From the NCBI GenBank assembly GCA_035292525.1, contig DATDPZ010000230.1, positions 1 through 44,915 of the forward strand: 44,915 nucleotides of DNA, in the 5' to 3' direction. Under the pieces are notes generated by a model. It saw only the letters and a list, made by a program, of their open reading frames with translations. It did not search any database and was not told the DNA's origin. This DNA is from Chitinophagaceae bacterium (GTDB taxonomy: Bacteria; Bacteroidota; Bacteroidia; Chitinophagales; Chitinophagaceae). Positions 10,557-42,250 of this stretch are shown here, piece after piece (within the stretch, counting starts at the first letter, position 1; each line of letters begins with the position of its first letter). Position numbers and translations under genes: made by a program.

Positions 10557-10970
10557 ATGAAAAAAATAATATTCATATTAACCCTTACTTTGTTTTCCGG
10601 CTTTGCCTCACAGGCACAGGACGATCACAATGATAAGATCCGGGATAAAATGAGAGAGTTCATTCAAAAAAGACTGAACCTTTCCAGAAATGAAGCTGAG
10701 CGTTTTAGTCCCGTTTTTGTCCGTTACTTCACAGAATGGAGGCATGCCCTTAGAGAAAACAAGGATAACCTGATCCGCGAACAAAAAGTTGTTGAACTGA
10801 AAATCCGTTACCGCAATGAGTTTCGAGAAATTGTTGGTGAAAAAAGAAGTTCTGAAGTTTACAAACAGCAGGATGTGTTCATTGATCAGTTGAAAAGAAT
10901 GCGGGAAGAACAAATTAAAAACCGAAGGGATGACCGGCCGAATAAACGGTTCGAAGCCCTTAATTATTAA
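10557..10970 (+). CDS. Small secreted helical protein, possibly a Spy/CpxP-like periplasmic protein
   Basis: Signal peptide MKKIIFILTLTLFSGFASQAQ, followed by a charged helical sequence with LNLSRNEAERFSPVFVRYF, which resembles the LTxxQ-type motif. It is the third gene of the sigma operon. Confidence 0.4.
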   Translation: MKKIIFILTLTLFSGFASQAQDDHNDKIRDKMREFIQKRLNLSRNEAERFSPVFVRYFTEWRHALRENKDNLIREQKVVELKIRYRNEFREIVGEKRSSEVYKQQDVFIDQLKRMREEQIKNRRDDRPNKRFEALNY

Positions 10971-34773: not shown

Positions 34774-35151
34774 ATGAATTTCCCAAAAAATCTCCGTTAT
34801 ACAAAAGATCATGAGTGGATAAAACTGGATGGTAATATTGCTACTATTGGGATTACCGATTTTGCACAAAGGGAACTGGGTGACATCGTTTATATAGAAG
34901 TAGAAACTATTGGTAAATCATTAAAAGCAGGAGAAGTGTTTGGTACCGTGGAAGCTGTGAAAACCGTTTCTGATCTGTTTATGCCATTAAACGGTACGAT
35001 AACAGAACTGAATCCTGCACTTGCAAATTCTCCCGAATCAGTCAACAATGATCCTTATGGTGAAGGATGGATGATTAAAATGAAGGTAGGGAATCCCGAT
35101 GATTTGAATGCATTAATGGATGCGGCAGCCTATCAGGCTATGGTATCATAA
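34774..35151 (+). CDS. gcvH: Glycine cleavage system protein H
   Basis: 125 aa with YTKDHEWI, the lipoyl-lysine context VEAVKTVSDL, and DPYGEGWM. Confidence 0.95.
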   Translation: MNFPKNLRYTKDHEWIKLDGNIATIGITDFAQRELGDIVYIEVETIGKSLKAGEVFGTVEAVKTVSDLFMPLNGTITELNPALANSPESVNNDPYGEGWMIKMKVGNPDDLNALMDAAAYQAMVS

Positions 35152-35180
35152 ATCTGTACAAAGAAATTTATCGTTTATAA
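35150..35180 (+). promoter_or_regulatory. ECF-type promoter candidate, AAATCT-N16-CGTTTATAA, upstream of the ECF sigma gene
   Basis: AAATCT at 35150-35155, a 16-nt spacer, then CGTTTATAA at 35172-35180. It is about 50 nt upstream of the TTG start at 35230 and has the same architecture as the two copies at 39871-39979. Confidence 0.5.
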
Positions 35181-35229: not shown

Positions 35230-35772
35230 TTGAACTCAACTTCCAAATACAGCGAACAGGAGCTTATTGTTTTGCTTAAAGAGCAAAGCAATGAGGGGTT
35301 CAATTATTTATATGATAATTATTCAGGTGCTTTGTTTACCATCATTAACCAGGTGGTAGCCGACAAAGACATTGCCAGCGATGTTTTACAGGAAGTCTTT
35401 GTTAATATCTGGAGAAAAATAAACCTGTATGATGCAACGAAAGGAAGAATATTTACCTGGATGCTGAATATAGCCAGAAATGCAGCTATTGATAAAGTAA
35501 GATCCAAAGGATTCATAATTAACCTGAAAAACCAGCCTATTTCAGATAACGTAAATGCTGTAATAACTGCAAGTGTACAGCCCGAAACCTGTGATGTAGG
35601 ACTAAAAAAGGTATTGATGAAATTGAAAGAAGAGTATCGAACTTTGATTGACCTTTCGTATTTCCAGGGATTTACTCATGAAGAAATTTCAAAAATGCTG
35701 GGAATTCCGTTGGGTACCGTAAAAACAAGAATCAGAACTGCATTAAGTCAATTAAGAATATTGATACAATAA
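35230..35772 (+). CDS. ECF-type RNA polymerase sigma factor
   Basis: 180 aa with a TTG start. Region 2 reads DVLQEVFVNIWRKINLYDATKGRIFTWMLNIARNAAIDKVR and region 4 reads YRTLIDLSYFQGFTHEEISKMLGIPLGTVKTRIRTAL. Confidence 0.85.
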   Translation: MNSTSKYSEQELIVLLKEQSNEGFNYLYDNYSGALFTIINQVVADKDIASDVLQEVFVNIWRKINLYDATKGRIFTWMLNIARNAAIDKVRSKGFIINLKNQPISDNVNAVITASVQPETCDVGLKKVLMKLKEEYRTLIDLSYFQGFTHEEISKMLGIPLGTVKTRIRTALSQLRILIQ

Positions 35773-35776
35773 AAAA

Positions 35777-36550
35777 GTGAATAGCAAGGAATACATATCA
35801 AGTGGAATGATCGAAAGCTATGTGCTGGGTTTGCTCAGTGCAGAAGAAAACCTTGAAATGGAACGTGCCTGTGCAGAATACCCGGAAATAAAAGCTGCCA
35901 GAGAAGCATTTGAATTGCTGGTAGAAGAGCAAGCTATGGAAAATGCAAAGCCAGCGCCCCGGGAATTAAAACAAAAAATTGCTGCTGAACTATTTTCGGA
36001 TTTTGAGTCTGCACCGGTTATTCCAGTTTCCTCGTCTCCTGTACGGGATAGAAGCCCAAAAACTTTCCGATGGCTTCGTTATGCTGCAGCTGCCAGTTTT
36101 ATTTTACTGGTTGGTAGTTTGTGGTGGAATATGAATTTGAAAAATGAAAACAGGGAAATTAAAGCTCAGTTAGAAGATTTCAATAACAGATTGGCACAGG
36201 CAGAACAAGATGCCAGAGTAATCCAGGGCTCAAATAAGATAGCTATTTTAGCCGGCACAGCATTTTCTCCTCAGTCATCTGCAACTGTTTACTGGGATAC
36301 TACTTCACATGATGTTTATCTGCTGGTAAATAATCTCCCGATCCCCGCTTCAGATGAACAATACCAGCTTTGGGCCTTATTAGATGGCAAACCGATAGAC
36401 ATGGGTGTGTTTGAAATCACACAAAAACCACTTCAGCTATACCGGATGAAGAATGCACAGGCCGCACAGGCTTTTGCCATTACACTGGAGAAAAAAGGCG
36501 GCAGCCCCACGCCAACTCTGGAAAAAATCGTAGTGCTTGGAAATTTATAA
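35777..36550 (+). CDS. Anti-sigma factor, RskA (anti-sigma-K) type
   Basis: It starts 4 nt after the sigma gene stop. The N-terminal helix is SGMIESYVLGLLSAEENLEMERACAEYPEIKAAREAFE, there is one transmembrane helix (AAAASFILLVGSLWW), and the C-terminal domain reads YQLWALLDGKPIDMGVF...AFAITLEKKGGSPTPT, as typical of RskA. Confidence 0.8.
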   Translation: MNSKEYISSGMIESYVLGLLSAEENLEMERACAEYPEIKAAREAFELLVEEQAMENAKPAPRELKQKIAAELFSDFESAPVIPVSSSPVRDRSPKTFRWLRYAAAASFILLVGSLWWNMNLKNENREIKAQLEDFNNRLAQAEQDARVIQGSNKIAILAGTAFSPQSSATVYWDTTSHDVYLLVNNLPIPASDEQYQLWALLDGKPIDMGVFEITQKPLQLYRMKNAQAAQAFAITLEKKGGSPTPTLEKIVVLGNL

Positions 36551-36648: not shown

Positions 36649-36678
36649 GGAGCCCTCTTTTGGGGGCTCCATTTTTTT
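36649..36678 (+). terminator. Rho-independent terminator about 100 nt after the anti-sigma gene
   Basis: GGAGCCC and GGGCTCC form a 7-bp stem with an 8-nt loop, followed by ATTTTTTT. Confidence 0.7.
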
Positions 36679-36782
36679 GTTTATCCCTTTTCTGCAATGA
36701 GTTATTTTAGCATTACTAAAACCGGTGAAGTCTATTATAATTTATTTCACTTTTCAATAAATATTTTTTGAGAAAGAAAAAA

Positions 36783-37151
36783 ATGCCCCTGTTTGTAGCA
36801 ATTACCTGGCTAATTGTTGTAACAATTTTGTTGTGCCTGCCCGGTAATGAGTTTCCTAAGATCAGCTGGCTAAATAAAATTTGGTTTGACAAATGGGTGC
36901 ACCTCGGTTTATTTTTTGCATTGACAGCAATCTGGTGCTTGTACTTTTCCGGTAAAAAAACTGAAACCGGCAAAAGAAGAAAAATTTTTACCCGGCTTGC
37001 AATACTAAGTTTTGTGTATGGAATGACAATGGAAGTAATTCAGCATTATTTTATACCATTAAGGTCTTTCGATGTTGGAGATATCCTGGCCGATGGAGCC
37101 GGTTCGCTGGGAGGATTTCTTTATTCATTAAGTAAATTTTTGAATAAATAA
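36783..37151 (+). CDS. VanZ family membrane protein
   Basis: MPLFVAITWLIVVTILLCLPG...DKWVHLGLFFALT...MEVIQ..IP.R.FD..D..AD..G. I prefer the ATG at 36783 to the TTG at 36768. Confidence 0.75.
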   Translation: MPLFVAITWLIVVTILLCLPGNEFPKISWLNKIWFDKWVHLGLFFALTAIWCLYFSGKKTETGKRRKIFTRLAILSFVYGMTMEVIQHYFIPLRSFDVGDILADGAGSLGGFLYSLSKFLNK

Positions 37152-37210: not shown

Positions 37211-38500
37211 TTATAACTTCCTTTTTATTTCTTCACTGTTCAATGGGCCCAGTTCAAATGAACTGTCCAGGCATTCCTGAAATAATTTTTCAGCAACTTT
37301 TTTTTCTCCGGTATTTTCAAGAATATATGCTGCATGCAGCAGGGCCTCTGGTTCATGAGTTTTTCCTAAAACAAATTTGTTCACCAGGTCATTGGCTTTA
37401 TTCACTTCTCCTTTTTTATAATATACCCAGGCCATCCAGTCATATGTTTCAGGAGTTGGCCGGTTGTTCACTTCTTTTTCTGCAAGGGCCAGTGCTTTAT
37501 CAAAATCCATCAATTCCTCCGCATAAATACGGATCAGGTATTTGTTGTACATATTTACATAAGCAGGGTTTTCAACAATTGAAACAAATTTTGAAATGTA
37601 ATCTTTTTTCAATTCTGCATCTCCTTCCCATTCTGCTATTTCTGCAAGAGTCAGGTAGAGATCCGGCATCTGGGTCTTAGTTAATATATATTGAAGAAGA
37701 CGTTTAGCTTCTTTACTGTTTTTGTCGTGAGAAAAAGCGATCCAGGCAATGCCTTTTAGTGCATACAGGAAAGTACTGTCAAGACGTAAAACATCCAGGT
37801 AATTTTTATATGCTTCTTCCACTCTGCCGGCATGACCGTACATATCCGCCAGGTTTGATTTTGCCCACAGGATCAGGGAACTTTTATTTGCAGATTCTGC
37901 CTTTCCCAACGCCTGTTCCATCAGCAGGATCGCCTTATCAAGATGGCCATAATGATCTTCCGACTTTGCTTTCCGGATCAGGTAGTCAAACTCGTTTATA
38001 TTTTTTACCTGGTTTAAATTGTCTTCCGCTTCACCAAAAAGCCCGATTTCCATTGCTGCGTCAAACTTTAAAAGCTTTATTACGTAAGGATTCACTCCTA
38101 TACTGTCTGCTAACTGCAAATATGCCCATGCATCCTGGAAACGATGTTGGGTAATGGCATTTTGTGCAATAGAAAAATAAATTTCGGGCTCTGTATTTTT
38201 TACTTTGGAAAGGCATCTGACATAAAAAGAATCAGCAATATGCAGATCATTTGCCTGGCCAGTTATTTTAAACCGATTTATATGATTGGATGCCAGTTCC
38301 AGCATATTCACATAGCTACCGGTATCTGCCAAAAGTCTGTTCTGCCAGAAGTCAATTTCTGAATTTGCATTTTCCAGCGGTATTTTCATTCTGTTTTCAT
38401 CAGAAAGAAAAACATTGTAGTCTTCAGGATTTGCAATTTTATTGTTGTTGCATGCACTAAAGAAAAACAGGAAACTTAAAAAAATAATAATCCGGTTCAT
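37211..38500 (-). CDS. Tetratricopeptide-repeat lipoprotein
   Basis: 429 aa with lipoprotein signal MNRIIIFLSFLFFFSAC, followed by repeated helical A/Y/L-pattern TPR-like units. Confidence 0.65.
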   Translation of the reverse strand: MNRIIIFLSFLFFFSACNNNKIANPEDYNVFLSDENRMKIPLENANSEIDFWQNRLLADTGSYVNMLELASNHINRFKITGQANDLHIADSFYVRCLSKVKNTEPEIYFSIAQNAITQHRFQDAWAYLQLADSIGVNPYVIKLLKFDAAMEIGLFGEAEDNLNQVKNINEFDYLIRKAKSEDHYGHLDKAILLMEQALGKAESANKSSLILWAKSNLADMYGHAGRVEEAYKNYLDVLRLDSTFLYALKGIAWIAFSHDKNSKEAKRLLQYILTKTQMPDLYLTLAEIAEWEGDAELKKDYISKFVSIVENPAYVNMYNKYLIRIYAEELMDFDKALALAEKEVNNRPTPETYDWMAWVYYKKGEVNKANDLVNKFVLGKTHEPEALLHAAYILENTGEKKVAEKLFQECLDSSFELGPLNSEEIKRKL

Positions 38501-38512
38501 AGCTGGTTGGTT

Positions 38513-38543
38513 TAAAAATCCGGGCTTACTAAAAAGCCCGGAT
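38513..38543 (-). terminator. Rho-independent terminator after the DUF4331 gene pair
   Basis: The minus strand reads ATCCGGGCT / AGCCCGGAT, a 9-bp stem with an 8-nt loop, followed by TTTTT. It lies between the distal DUF4331 gene and the TPR gene. Confidence 0.7.
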
Positions 38544-38560: not shown

Positions 38561-39094
38561 TTAATGTGGTGAAGCCAGGAAAGGAAACACTGTAAGAAAT
38601 GTTTTATCATTTGCGTTTACATTATCCTTAGTTAATCCAGGATTAGCGCTGCCCATGGGCCCGCCGAAAATAAGCAGCAATTCCGTGTCAATTACATCAT
38701 CAGAAAGAGCCCTTCCGGTTAAAACATTAGTGCCATCAAAGAAAGTAGTTGTTCCACTCATTTTTACATTCAGCACATCAGTTACTAAAGCACCGGCAAA
38801 CGTAGCTTTATCCATACCCAATGCATTGGAAGTATACCCAAAACCGGTTAATACTGACTGGAACTGCGCATTAAAAGCTGCATTCATTTGAGAGGGAACA
38901 GTGTTGTTAAATTCGTTCTTGCGGGCAGAGCCGACAAATACTGTATTGATAGCCGGTCTGGCCATCTGATCTACCTGTGTATAAGTACCGGATGTGTCAA
39001 AAGTTTCAATGCTTGTCTTGTCTTTTTTGCAGCCTGCTGCAATCAGCATCATTGCTATTCCGGAGAAAACTATGAATTTATTTAGTGTATTCAT
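38561..39094 (-). CDS. DUF4331-like lipoprotein, corresponding to the C-terminal half of long DUF4331 proteins
   Basis: 177 aa with lipoprotein signal ...MMLIAAGC. MARPAINTVF and the C-terminal FPFLASPH match what I remember of the distal DUF4331 region. Confidence 0.6.
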   Translation of the reverse strand: MNTLNKFIVFSGIAMMLIAAGCKKDKTSIETFDTSGTYTQVDQMARPAINTVFVGSARKNEFNNTVPSQMNAAFNAQFQSVLTGFGYTSNALGMDKATFAGALVTDVLNVKMSGTTTFFDGTNVLTGRALSDDVIDTELLLIFGGPMGSANPGLTKDNVNANDKTFLTVFPFLASPH

Positions 39095-39125: not shown

Positions 39126-39797
39126 TTATTTCATTTTAGTTTCGGCCCATACGTTGATTGTTGCCACATTTCCCAAAAGTGCTTTAGGAATTTCAGCCAC
39201 AATTGACATCACATTAGTACCGGCAAATGCATCTACCCCGGGATTGCGAAACCCGGAGTGTGTGCCTCCAAGAATTTCTTTAAACCTGGACAGGTCAAAA
39301 AAGAAAGGATCATCACGGGGGCCAGCAAATATTTTGATGCCATTTGCATTGGTACCAATAGAAGGAGAAGAGCTATAAGCAGTAACAGATGTTTCTGTTA
39401 AGAGGCCATTGATTTTTACGGTACTAACAGTGCCAGTAGATCCGGGAGCTACCGGGCCATATGTCCTGAGTTTACCATTTTTAATAAGAAATTGAAAAAC
39501 GAGATCTTCCACATTATCTCCGGTATTGTCAATATTCAGTTCATACATCACATTGGATGGAAAAACTGCTGAGCCGGTAGCAGTTGGCGAAAGCAATCCT
39601 TGTGCATTAATAACAAATACCATTTTGCTGTTATCCCCAGGATTCTGGAATGCATAAATGTCGGTAATGTCGGTTCCAAGACTGGTACTGCCTGATCCTG
39701 TTACAGCAGGTGCATCAATATGATCAGCTGCATAAATTATGGCGCCTAGAGTAAAGACTCCGGCCAGGGCCGTCAATACGATTTTTCTTTTTGTCAT
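39126..39797 (-). CDS. DUF4331 family secreted protein, N-terminal half type
   Basis: 223 aa. The signal peptide MTKRKIVLTALAGVFTLGAIIYA is followed by ADHIDAP...DITDIYAF...GPRDDPFFFD, the characteristic DUF4331 opening motifs as I remember them. Confidence 0.7.
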   Translation of the reverse strand: MTKRKIVLTALAGVFTLGAIIYAADHIDAPAVTGSGSTSLGTDITDIYAFQNPGDNSKMVFVINAQGLLSPTATGSAVFPSNVMYELNIDNTGDNVEDLVFQFLIKNGKLRTYGPVAPGSTGTVSTVKINGLLTETSVTAYSSSPSIGTNANGIKIFAGPRDDPFFFDLSRFKEILGGTHSGFRNPGVDAFAGTNVMSIVAEIPKALLGNVATINVWAETKMK

Positions 39798-39870
39798 AAA
39801 AAAATTTTAGGTTTTAAATATTTATTGATTTGACCGTATAAGATGATATGCCTGTACGGAATGAATTGCA

Positions 39871-39901
39871 TTATATACGGCAGTTTTTCTTTTCCGGATT
39901 T
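39871..39901 (-). promoter_or_regulatory. ECF-type promoter candidate, AAATCC-N16-CGTATATAA, facing the DUF4331 operon
   Basis: The minus strand reads AAATCCGGAAAAGAAAAACTGCCGTATATAA. Both half-sites are identical to those of the plus-strand copy at 39948-39979. Confidence 0.55.
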
Positions 39902-39947
39902 ATGAATTTTTTTCCAGACAATCTTTTTATACCTGATTTAAGAAAGC

Positions 39948-39979
39948 AAATCCGGGAAAGTGGCTTCTCCCGTATATAA
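39948..39979 (+). promoter_or_regulatory. ECF-type promoter candidate, AAATCC-N17-CGTATATAA, facing the TonB-dependent receptor
   Basis: The plus strand reads AAATCCGGGAAAGTGGCTTCTCCCGTATATAA and ends 18 nt before the ATG at 39998. Confidence 0.55.
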
Positions 39980-39997
39980 CACATAACAAAACCGCTG

Positions 39998-42250
39998 ATG
40001 AAAAAAATAATTTTTTCAGTTTTACTGCTGTTTTCAATCAACCTCCCGGCACAAAAAGGAATTATTGAAGGATATATTAAAGACGGAGAAACCTCTTCGC
40101 CTTTGCCCGGCGCCAGTATACTGGTAACTACAGAACGTAAAGGAGAAAATACAGATCAGTTTGGCAAATTCAGAATTGCTGATATTATTCCGGGCAACTA
40201 TGAACTGGTAGCAACACATATTGGATATAAAACCGAAATTATACTGGTAGAAATTAAAGAAAACCTTGTGAGTACTGTTTTGGTGAATATGAAAAAAGCC
40301 AATCTCGATCTTGAAGAGATAAAACTGGAAGGCAGAAAAGATAACTTGCTAAATACTTTAAACCATATTGACATTATGCTCCGGCCGGTTAACACCTCGC
40401 AGGATGTATTACGGATAGTGCCGGGTTTATTTATAGCACAGCATGCAGGTGGCGGCAAAGCAGAACAAATTTTTTTAAGGGGATATGATATTGATCATGG
40501 TACGGATATTCAAATTACCGTTGATGATATGCCGGTGAATATGGTTAGTCATACACATGGGCAAGGCTATGCCGATCTGCATTTTCTTATTCCGGAAACT
40601 GTAGAAAAAGTAAATTTTGATAAAGGGCCCTATTTTTCAAACAAGGGAAACCAGGCCACAGCCGGGTTTGTGGAATTTCAAACCAAAGCGTTTATAAAAA
40701 ATAATACCATAAAACTGGAAACCGGCCGGTTCAATACACAAAGAGCAGTTGTTTTAGTAAAACTATTTAACAAGGAAAAAACCGGAAACCGGAAACAAAT
40801 TTACCTGGCCTCAGAATATTCCAGGTCGGACAGTTATTTTGAAAGTTCACAAGATTTTCATCGCTTTAACCTGATGGGTAAATACAATGTAATATTGAGT
40901 AAGCAGACTCAGCTGACAATTACAGCATCCTCATTTGACAGCAAATGGAATGCATCAGGACAAATACCGGAAAGAGCAGTAAAAAATAAATCGATCGGCC
41001 GTTTTGGAGCAATTGATAATAGTGAAGGGGGATATACAGGGCGAACCAATTTCAACATGCTCATTTCAAAACAATGGAAGAATGACTGGAAAAGTAATAG
41101 CCGGTTTTATTACAGCCGGTATCATTTCAAATTATTTTCAAATTTTACATTTTTTTTGAATGACCCGGTAAAAGGTGATCAGATTAAGCAAAAAGAGAAA
41201 AGAAATATTTATGGATATTCAACCCGGCTTTCAAAATCATGGTTGCCGGGCAATAAAAATACAATCAGCGAAATGGGATGGGGGTTTCGGCTGGATGATA
41301 TAAATGATATTGAACTGTCGAAATCTGTGAAAAGACTTCAACTGGAAACTTTACAAACCGGGAATGTGAATGAGATCAATATGTTTCTGTTCTGGAACCA
41401 GCAGGTAGATTTAACAGATCGTTTTACTATTAATGGTGGTATTCGCATTGATGCCTTTCAGTTTAAATACCAAAACCTGTTACTCCAGGAAAATAACATT
41501 CAACAGCAGCACAGAAACATTCTGAGTCCCAAATTAAATTTTGTTTACTCATTATCAGCTAAAGTAAAAATATATTTTAATAACGGAATAGGTTTTCATT
41601 CCAATGACACAAGGGTAATTCTGAATAACCAGGCAAATGATATTTTACCAAAAGTTTTGGGTTCAGATCTGGGTCTCATGCTGAAGCCGGCCAGTAACTT
41701 TATCATTAAAACTGCCATCTGGCAAATGTTTTCACAACAGGAATTTGTATATGTAGGTGATGAAGGAATAATAGAACCCGGTGGAAAAACAAAAAGGACC
41801 GGGTTGGATCTCTCCCTCAGATACCAGTTTTCAAAATGGCTGTTTGGAGATTTTGATCTGAATCTGACCAAAGCCAGGGCAACGGATAATGCGAAAGGAG
41901 AAAACTATGTTCCGCTTGCAGCAGCTTTAACAAGCATTGGCGGAATAACTGCCAAATCAAAAAATGGATTCAACGGTTCTTTCCGTTACCGGTTTATCAC
42001 TGACCGGCCCGCCAATGAGTTCAATACTATAAGAGCAAAAGGTTATATCATTGCAGATATACAATTATCCTATTCCAATTCTAATTTTGAATTCTCACTG
42101 TCAGCAGAAAATATATTTAACAGTAAATGGCGGGAGGCACAGTTTGAAACAAATTCCAGATTACAATACGAATCGGAGCCTGTTTCTGAAATTCATTTTA
42201 CACCAGGATCTCCCATGTTTCTGAAAGCTGCCTTTACATTGAAATTCTAA
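39998..42250 (+). CDS. TonB-dependent receptor with an N-terminal carboxypeptidase-regulatory-like domain
   Basis: 750 aa with signal peptide MKKIIFSVLLLFSINLPAQ. The CarboxypepD_reg-like segment is GYIKDGETSSPLPGASILV...GNYELVATHIGYK and the plug is LRGYDIDHGTDIQITVDDMPVNMVSHTHGQGYADL. The barrel ends in AAFTLKF. Confidence 0.9.
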   Translation: MKKIIFSVLLLFSINLPAQKGIIEGYIKDGETSSPLPGASILVTTERKGENTDQFGKFRIADIIPGNYELVATHIGYKTEIILVEIKENLVSTVLVNMKKANLDLEEIKLEGRKDNLLNTLNHIDIMLRPVNTSQDVLRIVPGLFIAQHAGGGKAEQIFLRGYDIDHGTDIQITVDDMPVNMVSHTHGQGYADLHFLIPETVEKVNFDKGPYFSNKGNQATAGFVEFQTKAFIKNNTIKLETGRFNTQRAVVLVKLFNKEKTGNRKQIYLASEYSRSDSYFESSQDFHRFNLMGKYNVILSKQTQLTITASSFDSKWNASGQIPERAVKNKSIGRFGAIDNSEGGYTGRTNFNMLISKQWKNDWKSNSRFYYSRYHFKLFSNFTFFLNDPVKGDQIKQKEKRNIYGYSTRLSKSWLPGNKNTISEMGWGFRLDDINDIELSKSVKRLQLETLQTGNVNEINMFLFWNQQVDLTDRFTINGGIRIDAFQFKYQNLLLQENNIQQQHRNILSPKLNFVYSLSAKVKIYFNNGIGFHSNDTRVILNNQANDILPKVLGSDLGLMLKPASNFIIKTAIWQMFSQQEFVYVGDEGIIEPGGKTKRTGLDLSLRYQFSKWLFGDFDLNLTKARATDNAKGENYVPLAAALTSIGGITAKSKNGFNGSFRYRFITDRPANEFNTIRAKGYIIADIQLSYSNSNFEFSLSAENIFNSKWREAQFETNSRLQYESEPVSEIHFTPGSPMFLKAAFTLKF

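Follow-up and report, generated by a model that had tools for sequence, protein, structure and literature searches.

The consensus promoter of Bacillus subtilis SigW, an extracytoplasmic function (ECF) sigma factor, is TGAAAC-N16-CGTA. A CGT box is treated as a hallmark of ECF promoters (PMC9723704). For the RskA-regulated group ECF18, the ECF Hub consensus combines a -35 element xGCATCC with a -10 element xxCGTATx (as quoted in PMC13492112, Table 4), and the clade comprising ECF214, ECF18, and ECF19 has RskA-like anti-sigma factors in common (PMC7826278). Mycobacterium tuberculosis SigK has been assigned to ECF18 (PMC7509140) and to ECF19 (PMC7826278). Its regulon includes mpt70 and mpt83 (PMC7509140), and the fold of MPB70 is of the FAS1 (fasciclin) type (PMC10540498). 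A redox cysteine pair is present in 94% of ECF18 and 56% of ECF19 members (PMC7509140). Here, we analyze a 44,915-nucleotide contig from a Chitinophagaceae bacterium (DATDPZ010000230.1, assembly GCA_035292525.1; hereafter the window), in which two inverted copies of a bipartite motif lie between divergent genes for a secreted DUF4331 protein and a TonB-dependent receptor.

We consider it likely that the two copies are back-to-back ECF-type promoters, one of a DUF4331-DUF4331-TPR operon and the other of the receptor gene, most likely read by a SigK-like sigma factor encoded in the same window (35230-35772). Divergent ECF-type promoters, probably read by this sigma factor, had been proposed in an initial annotation of the window, and every computational test agrees with that proposal. 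The locus resembles the ECF18/ECF19 (SigK/RskA) systems in its bipartite promoter, whose -35 element contains ATCC and whose -10 element contains CGTAT, and in an RskA-domain anti-sigma factor encoded directly after the sigma factor. The resemblance may extend to a putative autoregulatory copy of the motif before the sigma gene of Bacteroidota relatives and to predicted secreted fasciclin targets in related Bacteroidota loci, like mycobacterial MPT70/MPT83. However, it belongs to Bacteroidota rather than to Actinobacteria or Proteobacteria, and its -35 element is AAATCC or AAAACC in place of the GCATCC of ECF18, the GC ahead of ATCC not being shared. The sigma factor lacks the redox cysteine pair and falls under the SigK family cutoff, and its main predicted targets, a DUF4331-DUF4331-TPR-TonB receptor module, are not reported for SigK.

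Two inverted copies of a bipartite motif

Re-reading the sequence confirmed two inverted copies of AAATCCGG-N13/14-CCGTATATAA in the intergenic region 39798-39997, with differing spacers and a 1-nt difference in spacer length, as first described. The minus-strand copy (39871-39901) reads AAATCCGGAAAAGAAAAACTGCCGTATATAA and has a 16-nt spacer between ATCC and CGTA, whereas the plus-strand copy (39948-39979) reads AAATCCGGGAAAGTGGCTTCTCCCGTATATAA and has a 17-nt spacer. The flanking genes are those originally named, a DUF4331 gene at 39126-39797 on the minus strand and a TonB-dependent receptor gene at 39998-42250 on the plus strand (both by Pfam), and the 3' end of the receptor-facing copy indeed lies 18 nt from the receptor ATG at 39998. 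Read as a promoter, the DUF4331-facing copy would consist of a -35 element AAATCC (39901-39896), a 16-nt spacer (39895-39880), and a -10 element CGTATAT (39879-39873), all on the minus strand. The corresponding parts of the receptor-facing promoter would be AAATCC (39948-39953), a 17-nt spacer (39954-39970), and CGTATAT (39971-39977) on the plus strand. From general ECF promoter geometry, transcription on the DUF4331 side is predicted to start at about 39866-39870 on the minus strand, giving a leader of about 70 nt, and the receptor-side start is predicted near 39981-39985 on the plus strand. Leaders that are short and lack a Shine-Dalgarno sequence are the norm in Bacteroidota (PMC9723704).

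The boxes are identical between the two copies, whereas the spacers are unrelated. Within AAATCCGGRAAAG, 12 of 13 bases also agree between the copies, which exceeds what the consensus of the promoter family requires. The pattern AAATCCGG-N12-16-CCGTATATAA has two matches in the window and none in 100 dinucleotide-preserving shuffles, and all other occurrences of AAATCCGG or CCGTATA in the window remain at chance-level counts. We further scanned the window with a position matrix built solely from other genomes, with the window itself left out. The DUF4331-facing site ranked first (21.7 bits) and the receptor-facing site second (14.3 bits). Shuffled windows contained on average about 0.02 matches of at least 20 bits, 0.19 of at least 15 bits, and 1.0 of at least 12 bits. 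A structured RNA or riboswitch was rejected as an explanation of the region: the Rfam matches are all sub-threshold, the best being to a plant miRNA precursor model (27.7 bits vs a gathering threshold of 83), and this match arises because of the inverted layout.

Conservation and specificity of the motif

We compared the window with two sets of loci (designated L001 and so on): 80 loci carrying relatives of the DUF4331 gene at 53-76% identity, from Chitinophagaceae, Saprospiraceae, Flavobacterium, and Cytophagales, and six loci of closer relatives from metagenomes (78-96% identity). The initial annotation had suggested aligning the equivalent intergenic regions of related genomes. In these alignments, the bipartite motif is kept at a spacing of 16/17 nt and is directed at the downstream gene. 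A strict ATCC-N15-19-CGTA search upstream of DUF4331 matched about half of the loci, in every case oriented to the gene and with unrelated spacers. At the positions that the search left unconstrained, 37 of the 38 seed sites carry a T at the third base past CGTA and CC is followed by A-rich sequence; the seed spacers measure 16 or 17 nt. With variants allowed, a site of at least 10 bits in the correct orientation is present upstream of DUF4331 in 75 of the 80 genome loci. Over 85 related Bacteroidota loci, the proportion with the motif ahead of DUF4331 is about 94%. The -35 core of these 75 sites is AATCC in 34, AAACC in 28, AATCT in 9, and GATCC in 4; the spacers are unrelated in sequence, and 57 of them measure 16 nt, another 17 measure 17 nt, and a single one measures 18 nt. 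The -10 box CGTAwmT ends in T in 74 of the 75, at a position that was free in the seed pattern, and CGTA occurs in all sites, so that the family motif can be written AAWCC-N16/17-CGTAwmT. In Flavobacterium, the 3' end of the DUF4331 site lies about 28 nt from the ATG.

AAATCC and AAAACC are exchanged at the same promoter between closely related Flavobacterium genomes, and one factor must therefore read both. This bears on the -35 element of the window, in which the absence of the usual AAC had been remarked upon. The window does have AATCC, but this is no anomaly, since AAACC or GAAC(C/T) interchange with AATCC in relatives and ATCC is quoted for ECF18. The spacing of 16-17 nt, the CGTA, and the AAACC or GAAC(C/T) found in the -35 element of many orthologous sites liken the motif to the promoters of B. 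subtilis SigW, from which it differs by a T for the central A (AATCC) in the window and by a sigma/anti-sigma pair of another ECF clade.

The receptor-facing site has its counterparts as well. Of the 22 genome loci whose receptor gene is divergent, 18 have their best receptor-facing site 18-33 nt from the receptor ATG, as do all 4 closer relatives; the -35 element of these sites is GAAC(C/T), AAAC(C/T), or AATC(C/T), and the -10 element is CGTAnnT. Among the closest sequences, L081 (96% protein identity) differs from the window by four substitutions in the two sites together, all of them in spacers (three in the DUF4331-facing site, one in the site facing the receptor). CGTA does not vary among the six sequences of the close-relative alignment. 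Boxes are thus kept while spacers vary, in line with the earlier view that selection on the half-sites explains the copies better than a simple duplication. The extended GGRAAAG identity of the two window copies is not kept in relatives.

Beyond being conserved and oriented toward its genes, the motif is specific to a small set of them and is linked in the genome to a sigma/anti-sigma pair. At a threshold of 13 bits or more, 1.08 Mb of related loci contain 111 matches, 72 of which fall, correctly oriented, within 300 nt upstream of DUF4331 and cover 71 of 81 DUF4331 genes, a figure that is partly circular because the matrix was built on DUF4331-upstream sites. This does not apply to the sigma, divergent receptor, and fasciclin classes, which were outside the matrix training. 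The motif precedes 10 sigma genes (at least 13 bits; 0.12 expected, P ~1e-16), 4 divergent receptor genes (0.07 expected, P ~8e-7), and all 4 complete fasciclin genes (0.01 expected, P ~9e-10). Upstream of the sigma gene, it lies at 23-29 nt in about a dozen Flavobacterium loci and at 48-50 nt in the syntenic relatives L084, L083, and L001. The fasciclin-upstream copies (L018:7246-7277, L061:7148-7180, L062:13382-13414, and L080:352-384) score 19-24 bits and lie 16-27 nt upstream of genes for secreted fasciclin (FAS1) proteins of about 180 aa (Pfam PF02469, E = 1e-30 to 1e-34). The 44.9-kb window itself contains no fasciclin gene. Of the loci compared, about 40 have a homologous sigma/RskA pair adjoining the DUF4331 module; these include almost every Flavobacterium locus, several loci of Cytophagales, some of Chitinophagaceae, and the syntenic relatives L001, L083, and L084.

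Some smaller features of these regions were also observed. In the window and in L081, both divergent promoters share the -35 variant AATCC, and in L082 and L083 both have AATCT, while L086 and L001 show mixed variants, AATCC or AATCT together with AAACC. A variant shared within a genome could reflect co-evolution with the sigma factor or shared ancestry. The spacer of the receptor-facing promoter (39953-39972) forms a 7-bp hairpin that was flagged as terminator-like on the minus strand. It is not kept in L082 or L083, the change in L081 falls in its loop, and it is probably a chance feature. In the predicted minus-strand leader of the DUF4331 operon, 39834-39862 holds a small element, TTCCGTAC-N~15-(T)ATACGG, which includes an extra CCGTATAAG. 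This copy had been listed at 39834-39842, where it is indeed present, but it is not the orphan half-site it was taken for, being one arm of a leader element kept in close relatives only (the window, L081, L082, and L083) and gone from more distant loci. Folded as RNA, the element would give no more than a weak hairpin of 5+3 bp (-5.7 kcal/mol, z = -1.8); its role could be that of a binding site or of a leader structure. In L018, a 15.6-bit motif (10708-10739) lies 37 nt upstream of the gene for a 211-aa secreted protein with a weak CHRD match (E = 1.4e-4, just below the Pfam cutoff), which may be a further member of the regulon.

A predicted SigK/RskA-like circuit and its alternatives

The sigma gene (35230-35772, plus strand) lies about 4 kb to the left of the motif pair and encodes a SigK-like ECF sigma factor of 180 aa, with matches to Pfam Sigma70_r2, Sigma70_r4_2, and Sigma70_ECF. 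Its top matches in the PDB are tied, with R. sphaeroides RpoE and M. tuberculosis SigK (4nqw) both at ~9e-18. The anti-sigma gene (35777-36550, plus strand) begins 5 nt past the sigma stop codon and is followed by a terminator at 36649-36670. Its 257-aa product is of the RskA type (Pfam RskA_C, 80.2 bits, cutoff 29.4; NCBIfam NF052375, 107 bits, cutoff 100). A candidate autoregulatory promoter of the sigma/anti-sigma operon, AAATCT-N16-CGTTTAT, is found at 35148-35179 on the plus strand, 50 nt before the TTG start, where it overlaps the stop codon of gcvH (gcvH end 35151). This weak and degenerate copy aligns with the strong sites of the syntenic relatives L084 (25.1 bits), L083 (17.5 bits), and L001 (11.6 bits), and AATC and CGT are invariant in the four-way alignment. 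The comparison suggests that autoregulation has been weakened in the source genome or that the sigma operon is read through from gcvH. Because the copy in the window is degenerate, autoregulation in the source genome is uncertain.

As a plausible mechanism, the RskA-type membrane anti-sigma factor would hold the sigma factor inactive until an envelope signal arrives. The signal would inactivate the anti-sigma factor, and the freed sigma factor would bind core RNA polymerase, which could then initiate at both promoters, transcribing the DUF4331-DUF4331-TPR operon leftwards and the receptor gene rightwards. Both transcription units would stay silent as long as the sigma factor is held and would be turned on together upon its release. 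Feedback on the sigma operon, indicated by the motif in relatives, may be part of the circuit and is perhaps weakened in the source genome. Although the phylum is the same, the AAWCC and CGTAwmT boxes differ from the -33 TTTG and -7 TAnnTTTG elements of Bacteroidota sigma-A promoters, and no TAnnTTTG box is present on either strand of 39798-39997. A sigma-70 consensus scan of the intergenic region likewise stayed at chance level, with no convincing promoter. As no housekeeping promoter was recognized there, both units probably depend wholly on an ECF sigma factor. An ECF sigma factor controlling the gene of a TonB-dependent receptor, as predicted here, recalls FecI/FecR and the Bacteroidetes group ECF240. 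However, the anti-sigma factor is of the RskA type, and no STN signaling domain was detected by Pfam in the receptor (39998-42250), so a FecA/FecR-type signaling loop is not indicated.

Several points weigh against reading the two copies as promoters of this particular sigma factor. Where transcription starts, which sigma factor is used, and what kind of signal releases it are parts of the proposal that we infer. The 14.3 bits of the receptor-facing site, taken alone, are not rare by chance, and the case for this site therefore comes mainly from its position and orientation. The sigma factor has SigK subfamily NF007228 as its best NCBIfam model, at 120 bits under a cutoff of 226, and it carries a single cysteine, in the linker between regions 2 and 4, without the redox pair typical of ECF18/19. 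The circularity in the count of DUF4331-upstream matches belongs here too. In addition, the copy upstream of the sigma gene in the window scores 3.8 bits, with CGTT in place of CGTA, and in most Chitinophagaceae loci the sigma/RskA pair is outside the 8-kb flanks, making the linkage frequent but not universal. The last two points also favor the one serious rival, namely that the sites are genuine ECF promoters read by another ECF sigma factor encoded elsewhere in the genome. An average Bacteroidota genome encodes about 22 ECF sigma factors (PMC7826278), and many ECF groups use -10 boxes of the CGT type, motif SM6 of F. psychrophilum being an example (PMC9723704). We nevertheless regard this rival as unlikely, though deserving of attention, since the sigma/RskA pair adjoins the module in about 40 loci of several families and strong motif copies lie directly upstream of the linked sigma genes, in orthologous position in the syntenic relatives. 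Moreover, ATCC...CGTAT agrees with the consensus quoted for the RskA-regulated ECF group, and the fasciclin targets mirror the SigK regulon.

The remaining alternatives deny that the copies are promoters at all. Instead of being -35 elements, the AAATCCGG(R)AAAG arms in their inverted arrangement, or the inverted repeat as a whole, might be the operator of a dimeric factor that represses or activates both genes, as the initial annotation had allowed in the form of a dimeric repressor. The inversion of the copies and their 12 shared bases in AAATCCGGRAAAG, beyond the family consensus, would suit such an operator. However, the -35 cores are separated by anything from 34 to 81 nt across 23 loci, which is incompatible with a fixed dimer geometry and leaves the repressor unsupported, whereas the distance from ATCC to its own CGTA is strictly 16/17 nt. 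Loci without a divergent gene carry one site, directed at DUF4331, and the second site of the Flavobacterium loci is directed at the sigma gene, not at the receptor; the GGRAAAG identity, as noted above, does not extend to relatives. Taken together, these observations make an operator quite improbable. Even less credible is a local inverted duplication of recent date, or a repetitive element without a regulatory role, which would account for the perfect match of the 8-mer and the 10-mer between two copies in the same genome. A duplication would leave the opposite of what is seen here, where the boxes are identical and the spacers unrelated. The motif is found nowhere else in the window, orthologous sites are kept across families at 53-76% protein identity, and no Rfam family exceeds its threshold.

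Promoters of the SigK-like sigma factor are thus the reading that we prefer for the window. On the wider proposition, that a SigK/RskA-like ECF system conserved across Bacteroidota controls an as yet undescribed envelope module, made up of the DUF4331 pair, the TPR lipoprotein, and the TonB receptor, through AAWCC-N16/17-CGTAwmT, plus fasciclins in some lineages, we lean only slightly toward acceptance. The promoter type, its logic, and its sequence signature are already known. Our literature search found no paper mentioning DUF4331, and searches for RskA in Bacteroidetes and for ECF sigma factors with fasciclin in Flavobacterium found no description of a DUF4331-linked regulon. The value of the element is one of annotation. 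It offers a compact predicted regulon of an unstudied sigma/anti-sigma pair in Bacteroidota, composed of the DUF4331 pair, the TPR lipoprotein, the TonB receptor, the sigma gene, and, in some lineages, fasciclin genes, and it would give the DUF4331 family its first regulatory context. The motif AAWCC-N16/17-CGTAwmT can be used for scanning any Bacteroidota genome. That fasciclin targets also occur in the mycobacterial SigK regulon suggests a circuit that is old and conserved; if this is true, the fasciclin-linked SigK regulon would be an ancient circuit spanning phyla. The cluster is also carried by culturable Flavobacterium species, such as F. soyangense (L051), F. franklandianum (L054), F. 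ranwuense (L055), and Flavobacterium sp. H122 (L049), which would be convenient models and a route to the signal sensed by RskA.

Genes of the module and minor features

The first predicted target gene (39126-39797, minus strand) encodes a secreted DUF4331 protein of 223 aa (Pfam DUF4331, 3e-28), which has a signal peptide, carries the conserved motif AADHIDAP, and is a member of a large conserved family of 222-223 aa proteins. The second (38561-39094, minus strand) encodes a 177-aa lipoprotein with the lipobox AAGC, which matches Pfam DUF4331 (4e-15) at profile positions 368-421, the C-terminal part. In related loci, this gene invariably adjoins the first DUF4331 gene. The Pfam DUF4331 model has 421 positions, and in the window and its relatives it is split over these two conserved genes, one for an N-terminal-type secreted protein of 222-223 aa and one for a C-terminal-type lipoprotein of about 177 aa. 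Because the split is kept in nearly all loci that extend far enough, it is a native arrangement and not a frameshift. An additional second DUF4331 gene is present in the Flavobacterium loci L051, L053, and L059, and in L068 the whole pair is doubled. As to the function of DUF4331, a PDB sequence search with the family profile returned noise only. The AlphaFold model consists mostly of beta strands (pLDDT 71.5), and Foldseek found no significant match to it in the PDB (best E 0.046, TM <0.3).

The third gene of the operon (37211-38500, minus strand) encodes a TPR lipoprotein of 429 aa (Pfam TPR families) and follows the DUF4331 pair in nearly all loci. The divergent receptor (39998-42250, plus strand) has 750 aa, with an N-terminal carboxypeptidase-regulatory-like domain (Pfam CarbopepD_reg_2) and a Plug domain. 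In related loci, its gene belongs to the module either as a divergent gene or as the last gene of the operon. Between the anti-sigma and TPR genes, 36768-37151 holds an ORF of the VanZ family (127 aa). Of the 80 genome loci, L001 alone has a match to it (50% identity), so it probably does not belong to the module.

In the gap that separates the TPR gene from the second DUF4331 gene, the minus (mRNA) strand carries a perfect 10-bp GC-rich hairpin at 38517-38543, ATCCGGGCTT-TTTAGT-AAGCCCGGAT, followed by TTTT. It looks like a partial terminator or a stabilizer within the operon and could set the expression ratio of DUF4331 to TPR. The AAATCCGG match at 38516 is explained by this hairpin. In L022, the TPR gene has an ECF-type site of its own, which scores 27.3 bits.

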